From Eledone cirrhosa (Eukaryota), in NCBI GenBank assembly GCA_964016885.1, contig OZ024742.1, forward strand, positions 45,756,001 through 45,820,000: 64,000 nt of DNA, in the 5' to 3' direction. Positions within the stretch are counted from its first letter, which is position 1. Each line of letters opens with the position of its first letter. The notes beneath the pieces were generated by a model. That model saw nothing but the letters and a program-made list of their open reading frames with translations, had not been told where the DNA came from and made no database searches. The position numbers were made by a program, and so were the translations under genes. Shown in pieces: positions 4,567 through 59,790 of this stretch.

Positions 4567-6904
4567 AAATTGGAATAAATGCTCTGAAATAGCGATATAT
4601 ATGTGAGTATAGACATAGAATATTCGAAAATATTCTGTATGTTTATAATAAACATTTTGAAGACCTAATCGCTATAGAATAGAATACGTCACGTATTACA
4701 ATTAGATTCTCGATAAAAGCAAGGGAAGTAATCTACGCGTTTCATTCTTGTTAGAATTCATCAGGACTACATATCCAGTGCTTTTATCGAGAATGACACA
4801 GCTAGAGACTTATAGAATACTTAGCTGTGTACTGGAACTGGTTTGAAAGAGCGGTTGCCGGTCCGGCAGAAATTAGAAATTGGAATAAATGCTCTGAAAT
4901 AGCGATATATATGTGAGTATAGACATAGAATATTCGAAAATATTCTGTATGTTTATAATAAACATTTTGAAGACCTAATCGCTATAGAATAGAATACGTC
5001 ACGTATTACAATTAGATTCTCGATAAAAGCAAGGGAAGTAATCTACGCGTTTCATTCTTGTTAGAATTCATCAGGACTACATATCCAGTGCTTTTATCGA
5101 GAATGACACAGCTCTTTCAAACCAGTTCCAGTACACAGCTAAGTATTCTATAAGTCTCTAGCTGTGTCATTCTCGATAAAAGCACTGGATATGTAGTCCT
5201 GATGAATTCTAACAAGAATGAAACGCGTAGATTACTTCCCTTGCTTTTATCGAGAATCTAATTGTAATACGTGACGTATTCTATTCTATAGCGATTAGGT
5301 CTTCAAAATGTTTATTATAAACATACAGAATATTTTCGAATATTCTATGTCTATACTCACATATATATCGCTATTTCAGAGCATTTATTCCAATTTCTAA
5401 TTTCTGCCGGACCGGCAACCGCTCTTTCAAACCAGTTCCAGTACACAGCTAAGTATTCTATAAGTCTCTAGCTGTGTCATTCTCGATAAAAGCACTGGAT
5501 ATGTAGTCCTGATGAATTCTAACAAGAATGAAACGCGTAGATTACTTCCCTTGCTTTTATCGAGAATCTAATTGTAATACGTGACGTATTCTATTCTATA
5601 GCGATTAGGTCTTCAAAATGTTTATTATAAACATACAGAATATTTTCGAATATTCTATGTCTATACTCACATATATATCGCTATTTCAGAGCATTTATTC
5701 CAATTTCTAATTTCTGCCGGACCGGCAACCGCTCTTTCAAACCAGTTCCAGTACACAGCTAAGTATTCTATAAGTCTCTAGCTGTGTCATTCTCGATAAA
5801 AGCACTGGATATGTAGTCCTGATGAATTCTAACAAGAATGAAACGCGTAGATTACTTCCCTTGCTTTTATCGAGAATCTAATTGTAATACGTGACGTATT
5901 CTATTCTATAGCGATTAGGTCTTCAAAATGTTTATTATAAACATACAGAATATTTTCGAATATTCTATGTCTATACTCACATATATATCGCTATTTCAGA
6001 GCATTTATTCCAATTTCTAATTTCTGCCGGACCGGCAACCGCTCTTTCAAACCAGTTCCAGTACACAGCTAAGTATTTTAAGTCTCTAGCTGTGTCATTC
6101 TCGATAAAAGCACTGGATATGTAGTCCTGATGAATTCTAACAAGAATGAAACGCGTAGATTACTTCCCTTGCTTTTATCGAGAATCTAATTGTAATACGT
6201 GACGTATTCTATTCTATAGCGATTAGGTCTTCAAAATGTTTATTATAAACATACAGAATATTTTCGAATATTCTATGTCTATACTCACATATATATCGCT
6301 ATTTCAGAGCATTTATTCCAATTTCTAATTTCTGCCGGACCGGCAACCGCTCTTTCAAACCAGTTCCAGTACACAGCTAAGTATTCTATAAGTCTCTAGC
6401 TGTGTCATTCTCGATAAAAGCACTGGATATGTAGTCCTGATGAATTCTAACAAGAATGAAACGCGTAGATTACTTCCCTTGCTTTTATCGAGAATCTAAT
6501 TGTAATACGTGACGTATTCTATTCTATAGCGATTAGGTCTTCAAAATGTTTATTATAAACATACAGAATATTTTCGAATATTCTATGTCTATACTCACAT
6601 ATATATCGCTATTTCAGAGCATTTATTCCAATTTCTAATTTCTGCCGGACCGGCAACCGCTCTTTCAAACCAGTTCCAGTACACAGCTAAGTATTCTATA
6701 AGTCTCTAGCTGTGTCATTCTCGATAAAAGCACTGGATATGTAGTCCTGATGAATTCTAACAAGAATGAAACGCGTAGATTACTTCCCTTGCTTTTATCG
6801 AGAATCTAATTGTAATACGTGACGTATTCTATTCTATAGCGATTAGGTCTTCAAAATGTTTATTATAAACATACAGAATATTTTCGAATATTCTATGTCT
6901 ATAC
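4567..6904. repeat. 310-bp tandem array with a hammerhead ribozyme in each unit (retrozyme-like); ~1.8 units in one orientation (4567-5113) then ~5.8 units inverted (5111-6904)
   Basis: Period 310 (tggaataaat at 4571 and 4881; gctctttcaa at 5111, 5421, 5731, 6041); units almost identical apart from one 2-nt deletion near 6078; (TA)n on both sides. Confidence 0.95.
5169..5257 (+). ncRNA. Type I hammerhead ribozyme, first + copy (further cores at 5509, 5819, 6127, 6437, 6747 on +; 4758-4764 and 5068-5074 on -)
   Basis: Stem I gtagtc/gattac; CTGATGA at 5199-5205; stem II attct-aaca-agaat; GAAA at 5220-5223; palindromic mini stem III ACGCGT; GUA cleavage after 5229; distal 16-bp stem attctcgataaaagca/tgcttttatcgagaat. 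Confidence 0.92.
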
Positions 6905-6944
6905 ACATATATATATATATATATATATATATATATATACACAA

Positions 6945-7140
6945 TCATCATCATCATCATTTTACATCTGATTTCCATGCTGGTATGGGTTGGATGGTTT
7001 GTCACATTCCAAGACTAAACTAGTCAGATGACCACATCTTGCTCATAAATTTCATTTTGGCATGATTTCTATAGCTGGATGCTCTTCCGAATGTCCACCA
7101 CCTTACAGCACAGTCGACTGGGAGCATTTTATCATGTCAG
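6945..7140 (-). mobile_element. Old SINE/RTE 3' fragment
   Basis: (ATC)n followed by 'ttccatgctggtatgggtt...ttctatagctggatgctcttcc'. Confidence 0.6.
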
Positions 7141-57318: not shown

Positions 57319-59201
57319 ATAACCAAGTCATACAGAATGGGATTGTTCCGAAGGACTGGCATAGCAGCATCATCATTAACTGCTACAAGGGTAAAGGAGA
57401 TGCCCTAGATAGGGGTAACTATAGAGGCATTAAATTAATCGACCAGGTCATGAAGGTCACAGAAAAAGTAATAGCGCAACTAATCAGAGAGAGAATTGAT
57501 CTAGATGAAATGCAGTTTGGGTTTGTGTCAGGTAAAAGTACCACAGACGCTCTTTTCATTGTACGACAACTACAGGAGAAGTACCTAGCTAAAAGTAAAC
57601 CCCTATACTTAGCTTTTGTCGACTTGGAGAAAGCCTTTGACAGAGTCCCCCGTTCCATTATCTGGTGGGCTCTTAGAAAACTAAGTGTTGATGAATGGCT
57701 TGTGAGAGCTTTACAAGTCATGTATAAAGAAACAGTCAGCAAGGTTAGAATTAACAACGAATATAGTGAAGAATTTAGCGTAAAAGTTGGTGTTCATCAG
57801 GGCTCCGTTCTTAGCCCCCTACTATTTATTATTGCTCTTCAGGCTATAACAGTGGAGTTCAAGACCGGCTGCCCATGGGAACTCCTATACGCAGATGATC
57901 TAACGCTCTTTGCTGAATCAATGGCTGAACTAGAGAAGAAATTCCAAACATGGAAGCATGGCCTAGAATCAAAAGGCCTTAAAATTAACCTGTCTAAGAC
58001 TAAAGTTCTAGTTTGTAGGAAGGAAAATAGGGCACCGGTCCCATCCGGGAAACGGCCATGCTCAGTGTGTAGGAAAGGAGTAGGTAGAAACTCCATCTTA
58101 TGTCCCAAATGCAAAGTATGGGTGCATAAAAGATGTAGTGGGATCACAAGTAAGCTAACTAAGAATATAGATTTTATATGTGGTCGGTGCTCTGGTGCAA
58201 TAAGTAGCAGCAAGTGCCCACAGAATACTAGCTCATTCCATTGCACAGATGGTTCTATAGAAATAGTGGACACCTTCCGTTACTTGGGTGACAAAATCAG
58301 CAGTGGTGGAGGGTGCTCTGAAAGTACAGTAGCTAGAGTCAGAACTGGATGGAAAAAGTTCAGAGAGCTTATACCACTATTAGCCGCTAAAGGGTTCTCT
58401 CTAAAAATGAAAGGGAGACTGTATGATGCCTGCATACGAACAGCAATGTTACATGGCAGTGAGACCTGGGCATTGTGTGCAGAGGATATACACAGACTGG
58501 AGAGGAACGAAGCTTGCATGCTCCGCTAGATGTGTAATAGTAATATACGTGAACGGCAAAGCATAAACGAACTAAGGGAAAAATTAGAAATAAGAGGGAC
58601 CAGATGTTGTTTACTCGAGAGAAGACTACGTTGGTATGGTCACGTGATGCGCATGAAAGACGACAGCTGTATAAAAAAGTTCAGGGCAATAAAAATAGAC
58701 GGTAGCCACAGAGTAGGCAGACCCAGAAAATTCCGACCTCACACACTTACACCTCTCCAAGACAATGTCACTGGACCGAGATCTTTGGCGCTACACAGTA
58801 ATACAGAAGACCCGCCTTACCTAAGTACAAAGTGAAACCTACTACAGTCAGTAGGCACCTCTAACAAAAATATACCCCGTCCCACTACCCCCACCCCATC
58901 CACACCACCCTTTTCAATGTAAAGTTATGTTGGTACCACAACATCCAGTCCGAAACAAATGAGGTCGTGTAGGTGTCACGACAAAAAACACACAGTCCAC
59001 GCTGTAATGTGGCCATGTAGGTAACATGGTAAAAACCTCCCAGACCCACACTGTAAATGGGGTTGGCGTTAGGAAGGGCATCCAGCCGTAGAAAACCCGC
59101 CAGACAGTACTATGCGAGCAAGACAACCACTCTTGCCTCAAGTGGGAAAACTCTCGTCCAAACCCATGCTAGCATGGAAGATTGACATTAAACGATGATG
59201 A
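57319..59201 (+). mobile_element. 5'-truncated RTE LINE
   Basis: ORF 57189-58529 carries the RT motifs; nonsense codon at 58527; 3' UTR and (GAT)n. Confidence 0.94.
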
Positions 59202-59216
59202 TATATATATATATAT

Positions 59217-59790
59217 ATAGGAAAAAGTATGACCCCGACGGCAGAGCTCAAGCCGTTTCGACGGCTATTTCTGGACTAAATTAGAATTTTTAGCCTGGTG
59301 AATATATAGCCGAACTTGTCAAGGGGTACTTCCTTATATGGGAAGATTGTAGTTGTCAAGAGGATTGGTTAAAATTTGTTGTAAACACAAATAAGTCTAT
59401 CATGGCATTTGGTGGGAGGTAGGGGTGGCTGAACTTGCCTGTAGAACAACAGGAGCGGTCAGGCATTGAAAGTGATATTGTTCTACAGGCAAGTTCAGCC
59501 ACCCCTACCTCCCACCAAATGTCATGATAGACTTATTTGTGTTTACAACAAATTTTAACCAATCCTCTTGACAACTACAATCTTCCCATATAAGGAAGTA
59601 CCCCTTGACAAGTTTGGCTATATATTCACCAGGCTAAAAATTCTAATTTAGTCCAGAAATAGCTGTCGAAACGGCTTGAGCTCTGCCGTCGGGGTCATAC
59701 TTTTTCCTATTTCCCACTCTACTACCCTAAGTATTGAGGACTCTGGTGTGTTATGGTCCATCTGGTTCCTTACCACTATTCCTTTGTTAT
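59217..59790. mobile_element. TA-flanked fold-back element: 233-bp inverted arms (59217-59449 / 59478-59710), 28-bp spacer, ~80-bp unpaired tail
   Basis: Arms are reverse-complementary with about 3 mismatches; each carries an HHR. Confidence 0.9.
59593..59708 (+). ncRNA. Type I hammerhead ribozyme with U3-A8 core (mirror copy at 59219-59334 on -)
   Basis: acccc-TTGACAA(59605-59611)-g..tggctat...atagctg.c-GAAA(59668-59671)-CGGC(ttgagctct)GCCGTC, cleavage after 59690, then ggggt; distal aggaagta/tactttttcct. Confidence 0.8.

Follow-up and report, generated by a model that had tools for sequence, protein, structure and literature searches.

The 64,000-nt stretch of the Eledone cirrhosa genome analysed here (the window; contig OZ024742.1, positions 45,756,001 to 45,820,000) is crowded with mobile elements carrying type I hammerhead ribozyme (HHR) motifs, in part Penelope-like elements (PLEs) and in part retrozyme-like repeats that lack open reading frames (ORFs). 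A search with a type I descriptor (core CUGANGA or the U3-A8 variant UUGANAA, GAAA, an NUH triplet and three stems, open at stem I) found 16 motifs in 7 families. They occupy exactly the seven sites where an earlier note on this DNA had placed HHRs (4.7–6.8, 15.6, 23.7/27.9, 34.06, 34.85, 40.3 and 59.3/59.6 kb), nine on the plus and seven on the minus strand, with no strand bias. The descriptor was widened to the U3-A8 core and one stem II defect after by-eye inspection of the sites at 15.6, 34.85 and 59.3 kb; a version with a 3-nt loop III and the C3-G8 core returned only 4 motifs, and the next version 12. With the widened form, 100 local dinucleotide shuffles of the window held a mean of 0.04–0.26 motifs (maximum 3) and the reversed window none, which disposes of the concern that shuffled sequence might yield similar counts. 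No Rfam HHR model matched the window at its gathering score; the eight family A copies gave sub-threshold HH9 matches (23 bits, against 52 required), and the other families were absent among the matches listed (150 of 159). The motifs fit the conserved type I core with three stems, and self-cleavage is predicted from them.

Eight of the motifs belong to family A, an ORF-free monomer of 310 nt (longest ATG ORF, 30 aa) that is inserted as two inverted arms. Arm 1 (4567..5113, minus strand) holds 1.8 units with HHR cores at 5074 and 4764, and its 3′ end lies at site 2 (position 167 of the monomer, numbering from the predicted cut), where it abuts TA. Arm 2 (5111..6904, plus strand) holds 5.8 units with cores at 5199, 5509, 5819, 6127, 6437 and 6747, and its 3′ end lies at site 1 (position 127), abutting (TA)n; the arms share 3 nt of microhomology at their joint. 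All six HHRs of arm 2 have a C3-G8 core, a GUA triplet and a 6-nt palindromic stem III. Family G (15330..15795, minus) is a 5′-truncated copy of an ORF-free, putative retrozyme of about 595 nt, with a U3-A8 HHR (core 15657, predicted cut 15578, GUC) and a short inverted arm (15734-15795), cut short by a fragment of a long interspersed nuclear element (LINE). Family D (34208..35050, plus) represents an older ORF-free candidate retrozyme of about 393 nt, with about 88–90% identity among copies. Its plus arm (34680-35050; HHR core 34835, GUC) ends at site 2, and an irregular minus-strand piece (34208-34427), excluded from the pair count below, lies across a TA array. Family E (40223..40560, minus; HHR core 40378, GUA) is a single 5′-truncated arm of an ORF-free repeat of about 485 nt, likewise retrozyme-like, with TA on both sides and no fold-back.

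The remaining motifs lie in elements that resemble Hydra-clade PLEs. The main arm of family B (24518..28122, plus) contains an ORF for reverse transcriptase (RT) and endonuclease (EN) (24626-26698) with a frameshift within the endonuclease, an HHR (core 27931, AUA) and an 84-nt tail (28039-28122) that stops at site 2 within (TA)n. Its inverted arm (23652..24517, minus; core 23759) is 866 nt long, 100% complementary to the main arm, and ends at site 1 in (TA)n. A second, broken Hydra-type PLE (28184..31015, minus) has an RT piece 49% and an EN piece 37% identical to B, and its 3′ repeat contains core-like words, yet no HHR that passes the descriptor. Family C (33897..34198, minus; HHR core 34085, AUA) appears to be the terminal repeat of another Hydra-type PLE, its main arm ending at site 2 and a short inverted arm, from 34154, ending at site 1 in TA. 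Family F (59217..59790), apparently the terminal repeat of a third such element, is again two-armed: 59217-59449 (minus) ends at site 1 and 59478-59790 (plus) at site 2 with an 80-nt tail, and both arms carry U3-A8 HHRs with GUC (cores 59322, minus, and 59605, plus).

Two further sites had been called decayed HHRs. The one at 39.7 kb, in the old family H (39608..39815, plus; core 39674; short inverted arm), was rightly so called, because the CTGATGA...GAAA core is present and the cleavage triplet is disrupted here but intact in relatives at 79–86% identity. The call at 48.4 kb failed, as no intact core occurs there or in any of 14 family I loci; the GAAAC-GUC stretch considered as a ribozyme half was rejected, being antisense to the element, with CUGANGA absent in all 14 loci. 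Family I (48075..48520, minus) forms the 3′ terminus of a PLE whose C-terminal domain is a GIY-YIG and which, from its motifs, we take to be of Neptune/Poseidon type; its two ends lie about 40 nt apart, and its short second arm (48458-48520) carries a deletion. An HHR-shaped fold does exist at 48338-48372 (minus), with a short stem I, a GGAT/ATCC stem II, GAAA, a palindromic stem III and AUA. Its first strand is non-canonical, and it is common to copies 97% identical; it may be an unusual variant, or else an inactive ribozyme carried by a PLE that moved recently. The short second arms of C (34154-34198) and I both have internal deletions between short homologies, as expected if long palindromes collapse.

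The earlier note had also described the families as unrelated outside their cores, as mostly bearing an inverted copy or palindrome on the 5′ side, and as flanked by (TA)n. No pair in the window aligns around the cores at E≤1e-4, but some kinships exist: the Hydra PLEs to which B, C and F belong are related, B and C have stem I sequence in common, and family A weakly matches one H copy (67% over 84 nt, E 0.002). Inverted copies are long second arms in A, B and F and short ones in C, G, H and I, but E has none and D is irregular; these 5′ palindromes do not belong to the structure of the family RNA but represent the second cDNA arm of each insertion. The (TA)n flanks were borne out in unselected samples, where a (TA)5 run lies no more than 350 nt downstream of 35 of 40 motifs, against 26% of random points.

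Assignment of the families to PLEs or to ORF-free repeats, which the note had left to a genome-wide survey, was possible for the seven window families: B, C and F are PLE terminal repeats, and A, D, E and G are ORF-free. All 126 scored matches to the family B ORF are 97–100% identical, many with open frames of about 820 aa (at least 126 copies). An intact copy (L047) has RWT, DKT, CNCRIKNKC, CNLC and CLH motifs and an RT followed by a C-terminal GIY-YIG without CCHH; the window copy has EKT in place of DKT, plus the frameshift. Pfam gave no match to this Hydra-type ORF, and a homologue search with it returned 15 proteins at 32–38% identity. By its protein motifs, its HHR in the terminal repeat, its (TA)n target and its tandem and inverted structure, B fits a Hydra-clade PLE. 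Families C and F adjoin Hydra-like ORF pieces, upstream and downstream, on the ribozyme strand (L101, L102, L061, L064, L068, L069), and their identification as Hydra-type PLE repeats rests on 30–58% identity to B across these RT and EN pieces.

The ORF-free families form head-to-tail monomers of 310 nt (A), about 393 nt (D), about 485 nt (E) and about 595 nt (G), the D and E periods resting on few loci, with longest ATG ORFs of 30–48 aa and a GC content of 0.35–0.41. They fit the description of retrozymes without long terminal repeats (non-LTR retrozymes): ORF-free tandem monomers with one type I HHR per unit and GC under 45%. Family A has a relative, A′ (316 nt; L132:412-1084, L178:6586-7293, L235-L279), which is 70–77% identical over the start region and has the same two 3′ ends. 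The A′ HHR has a U3-A8 core where A has C3-G8, a GUC triplet and a longer stem III, a compensatory core switch within one lineage. First-look searches gave 141 candidates for A, 839 for A′, 1,162 for H, 1,911 for C, 2,028 for I, 2,056 for F, 2,605 for G, 2,950 for E and 3,470 for D; these are not copy numbers, and the best 40 were scored each time. Four other loci (L185, L192, L198, L227) contain HHR elements of additional families, nested or in clusters and including 467- and 528-nt tandems. One of these loci (L185) holds a symmetric set of seven HHR motifs, and a TAACAA loop II is common to A and two of the additional families.

The anatomy of the insertions is most regular in family A, for which 21 loci were mapped from the best-scoring 40 of the 141 candidates. 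Eighteen are two-armed, joined 5′ to 5′ with both 3′ ends facing out into (TA)n, and the rest are two single arms and one duplicated single arm. The outer ends fall at monomer positions 127–139 or 163–172 (one end read as 105 owing to a substitution), far from the predicted cut site at 310/1, and those of A′ at about 140 and 166–173. Two fixed ends recur in the other families, separated by about 84 nt in B, 80 in F, 90 in C, 40 in D, 40 in I, 110 in E and 170 in G. Among clean head-to-head insertions with both ends in TA, all 63 had one arm ending at each site (A 18/18, A′ 10/10, B 7/7, C 5/5, F 5/5, G 10/10, D 1/1, E 1/1, I 6/6; p=4e-6 for family A alone); in C, E, G and I the queries fixed one end and left the partner end free. 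No structure common to the start-site regions of different families was found, folding having been completed for A.

Away from these ends, the arms appear indifferent to monomer boundaries. The inner ends of family A are uniform round the monomer (38 ends, Kolmogorov–Smirnov (KS) p=0.55), and its arms cross the predicted cut site 192 times without an indel there. Arms reach 13 units, and their lengths fit an exponential (mean 1.66 kb, KS p=0.11). The lengths of paired arms are uncorrelated (Spearman -0.18, p=0.46), the site-2 arm being the longer in 9 of 18, and junctions show 0–3 nt of overlap in 17 of 18 and a 1-nt gap in one.

The copies within an array also tend to be alike. Family A arrays are almost free of variation (23 differences in 67.4 kb, 99.97% identity) although dispersed over many contigs, and no private A variant recurs between independent loci; comparing divergence within and between loci has no power in so uniform a family. 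In A′, five haplotypes are each fixed along arrays. By an alignment-based tally, markers are uniform over all units at 26 of 27 loci (position 310), 27 of 28 (261) and 28 of 28 (262), and both arms agree at a marker in 12 of 13 and 10 of 10 cases (chance match 0.23); the mosaics of two A′ loci are not common to other loci. In B, units differ by 0.6% within a locus and 2.0% between loci, with 111 shared minor alleles against 16 discordant, and G (1.2 versus 2.1%) and C (2.8 versus 5.1%) go in the same direction. A new allele fixed along a whole array needs a one-unit bottleneck, which ribozyme cutting and circularisation would supply. Taken together, the independent arm lengths, the junctions blind to the cut site and the uniformity of A′ point to an endless and likely circular monomer on which both target strands prime.

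The PLE insertion signature (two fixed internal 3′ ends, an inverted second arm and a microsatellite target) is present in A, A′, G, D and E. In vitro, an anole PLE cuts and extends both strands of AT-rich DNA, with two internal starts bounding its tail (Frangieh et al. 2024, PMC11167929), and the ORF-free families therefore carry a PLE footprint. This agrees with the earlier picture of an ecosystem of PLEs and ORF-free ribozyme repeats under one integration signature, and we regard mobilisation of these families by PLEs as very likely. The particular mechanism that we favour is probable, at a lower level of confidence: insertions of PLEs and retrozymes into (TA)n would end at one site per arm through PLE RT-EN priming on both strands, with a predicted ribozyme-cut, circular monomer RNA as template. 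One Penelope-type enzyme copying the putative circle from both cut strands is the likely reason why the arms of a two-armed copy always stop at different fixed sites. Tandem transcripts would be cut at successive HHRs, whose palindromic stem III suggests dimer folding, and the monomers ligated to circles; the family B tail runs directly into the element's own 5′ end in tandems of about 3.9 kb, as a permuted circle would give. The PLE protein would then cut both strands of (TA)n, and each 3′-OH would prime at a separate internal start site, 27–170 nt apart. Each cDNA would be copied round the circle until drop-off, and the two would be joined by microhomology and the gaps filled in. Single-arm copies may be the same event with one arm lost or never extended, and some arrays would grow later through unit duplication. 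It is conceivable, although we would sooner doubt than assert it, that PLE integration is obligately an asymmetric double-priming reaction, with an enzyme dimer, one ribozyme-made circle, two staggered starts and two rolled cDNAs of up to about 13 turns per arm. Viroid-sized retrozymes would then hijack it via a conserved start module, tail length would mark the serving PLE clade, and the genome would hold some 200,000 hammerheads.

Several observations weigh against the circle mechanism. A search of 1.29 Mb of loci, 0.04% of the genome, turned up no PLE resembling A, D, E or G in sequence (for G, among the matches listed). The older families D, E and F show no clear excess of within-locus identity, some segment pairs coming from separate insertions, and the uniformity of A′ is also expected from young homogeneous tandem masters or from one active allele per cell. 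Units were duplicated after insertion at 4 of 28 A′ loci (L260, L261, L262, L268), so long arrays need not all be turns of an RT. The mapped A loci are biased to long arrays, and the pairing count was made after exclusion of L153, eight A′ pairs with an eroded or interrupted end, two D rows with reference-edge artefacts, a B locus whose short arm ends at neither site (L049), and the sole near-exception, an A′ locus with both ends near site 2 and one outside TA (L271). Of nine predicted Xenopus retrozyme dimers, one cleaved in vitro according to a preprint (10.64898/2026.07.22.740005), and the anole PLE, as reported, used unprocessed RNA, inserted normally with HHR mutants and showed no strand difference in start site (PMC11167929). 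These in vitro results lend themselves to a reading in which the same PLE enzyme and two start sites act on an uncleaved tandem transcript of the array, the ribozymes being late, rare or passengers. A multi-copy mRNA, with HHR cleavage unnecessary in vitro, is proposed in the anole study, and PLE minimal HHRs are described as poor cleavers in vitro (PMC4209133). Family I has the two-end signature without a canonical core, and the near-absence of variants in A arrays would fit a homogeneous master. Such linear copying should, however, spread mosaics, because a new mutation hits one unit, yet A′ haplotypes are fixed and the two mosaics are unshared; private A variants never recur, and the HHR was kept through the compensatory switch between A and A′. 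We therefore consider an uncleaved template unlikely, if a serious competitor.

A departure from double priming altogether would have a single priming event, the inverted arm arising by snap-back copying of the first cDNA or through repair, and the arrays growing later as satellites by unequal exchange. Higher-order repeats in L260 and L261, duplicated units in L262 and L268, the short and internally deleted second arms of C and I, and the local amplification proposed in the preprint (10.64898/2026.07.22.740005) are all in its favour. An arm longer than its template is nevertheless not expected with a fixed first start, and arm length splits 9:9; near-junction variants of one arm are not mirrored in the other (L017), and arrays with the same two ends lie on many contigs, at 99.97% identity in A. 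Single priming is accordingly improbable. One A′ locus (L260, at 293,634,300-293,644,290 on another contig), a 26-unit array with 6-unit and 4-unit higher-order repeats, shows a retrozyme insertion on its way to becoming a satellite. Perfect inverted repeats are a known type of chimera, the arms of A are 100% identical, and L031 and L266 resemble local duplicates, all of which would suit long-read fold-back or assembly artefacts. The flanks are unmirrored, however, the arms end at different fixed sites, those of older families have diverged, and an outside sequencing run (X1) has both TA junctions, so that an artefact is very hard to credit. Equally far-fetched is retention of the ribozymes for a host role such as the cutting of intron-containing pre-mRNA. 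Two-armed insertions do place HHRs on both strands, and any transcript through the window would carry sense copies, but all motifs belong to dispersed high-copy mobile families, the strands show no bias, and no host exon came to light (a weak test, in which Pfam matched 0 of 48 short ORFs taken from less repetitive parts). Were the window intronic, sense HHRs might still cut the host pre-mRNA, as the note had suggested.

Many parts of the circle mechanism have been described elsewhere. Hydra-clade PLEs, in the accessible text of Craig et al. (2021, PMC8557442), share with B the C-terminal GIY-YIG without CCHH and the RW-K/T, DKT, CxCX5C, CxxC and CxH motifs, as well as the terminal-repeat HHR, (TA)n targets, partial tandems with an inverted 5′-truncated copy, and a tail at one end. 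They differ in having tails of 30–40 nt (80–90 nt here) and units under 3 kb (about 3.9 kb here); the strict pairing of ends is absent from that portion of their description, and the number of near-identical copies with open frames also sets the Eledone elements apart. Poseidon PAc of Anolis resembles the elements here in having two internal RT starts that bound the tail, an AT-rich target, cutting and extension of both strands, and a predicted dimer. That study (PMC11167929) favoured unprocessed linear RNA and, besides finding no strand difference in start site, dealt with neither ORF-free partners nor paired ends. The minimal HHRs of PLEs (Cervera and de la Pena 2014, PMC4209133) resemble those here in the palindrome of stem III, the length of stem II, the additional base that follows A9 and the U3-A8 variant, and form opposite-strand pairs 100–700 bp apart, for which a circle template was proposed. 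The U3-A8 core is here also found in the ORF-free G and A′, and the motifs number about 2×10^5 per genome rather than about 2,000–9,000.

Metazoan non-LTR retrozymes (Cervera and de la Pena 2020, PMC7229834; Li et al. 2026, 10.64898/2026.07.22.740005) are likewise ORF-free and low in GC, each head-to-tail unit bearing one type I HHR, and circular intermediates and mobilisation by PLEs were proposed for them; the latter source reports retrozyme–PLE kinship by phylogeny, and its accessible part does not mention tails or initiation. The Eledone families differ in that their insertions into (TA)n are dispersed and two-armed and have paired start sites of PLE type, their circles being putative, and E and G (485 and 595 nt) exceed the 150–450 nt range given in PMC7229834. 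In Xenopus, sequence links retrozymes to a PLE terminal repeat, as none of the 1.29 Mb of loci did here. A 2026 octopus repeat annotation does not mention ribozymes in its available text (PMC13282606).

Outside these systems, twin priming by L1 elements offers a likeness, since both target strands prime and the inversion shows microhomology. There, the internal site of the second primer varies and the arms share no overlap, whereas here the starts are fixed and both arms can exceed unit length. PLE-repeat HHRs, TA targets, the inverted copy, the tail and retrozyme circles are thus known parts, and the mechanistic footprint of paired ends and a PLE signature on retrozymes appears to be new. No report of paired start sites per arm or of retrozymes with PLE tails was found, most subscription papers and Repbase lying outside the search, and the window families may already be catalogued, for instance in Repbase. 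The role of PLE hammerheads and the way animal retrozymes move are open questions in the literature. The earlier case for PLE mobilisation of retrozymes drew on co-occurrence and sequence similarity; here, ORF-free families bear the PLE's own mechanistic footprint, and the pairing rule (63 of 63) constrains any model of second-strand synthesis. The genome itself supplies test material, in the many open Hydra-type ORFs and in the 310-nt family with its near-identical copies. If the circle model is true, a telomerase-like RT would write multi-copy inserts from a small circle at mapped starts, which bears on retroelement evolution and on tools for RNA-templated insertion.

The richness in ribozymes suggested by the window holds for the genome at a lower level. 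Of sixty 10-kb samples taken at even intervals, 20 contained motifs with a score of at least 12; these numbered 41, against 0.9 in 15 shuffles and 1 in reversed sequence. This is 68 motifs per Mb (bootstrap 38–105) or, extrapolated to the 3.0-Gb assembly, about 2.0×10^5 per genome (1.1–3.1×10^5). The window itself, at 250 per Mb, is 3–4 times denser than typical, mostly because of family A's eight copies. The sampled motifs form 15 clusters at 70% identity, three of them in common with the window. Elsewhere, about 2,000–9,000 minimal HHR motifs per genome (PMC4209133) and up to 120,000 retrozyme copies in the axolotl (PMC7229834) are reported, obtained with descriptors that differ from ours.

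Family A was also met in sequencing runs. Run X1 carries it with three near-fixed differences from the window and with TA junctions at both A sites (5399, 5678); over window positions 5100-5800 it gave 560 contigs with very high summed depth and many variants. The commonest X1 form has the first stem II base changed (5206), a mismatch like that in families D and H. Over the same positions, runs catalogued under three other organisms (X4, X5, X6) each gave one 340-nt family A contig (310+30, a closed loop) at a depth of 18–34 with 2–3 differences, which may reflect a circle, tandem DNA or cross-contamination.

About 76% of the window matches other sampled genome loci or simple repeats, and long (TA)n arrays are present. 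LINE copies with RT and AP-endonuclease domains, which we take to be RTE-like, lie at 8608-11760, 12121-15243, 17847-20218 and 57189-58800; that at 12121-15243 (minus) retains a 1040-aa frame that is open and encodes endonuclease, RT and a PHD-like finger, and 13636-14585 and 17848-18797 are inverted copies of each other. Three tRNA-like heads, probably of short interspersed nuclear elements, occur at 33012-33075, 47405-47462 and 61595-61652 (minus). Finally, a 4-kb (CAC)n-type array occupies 51470-55465 and inverts to (GTG)n near 54860.

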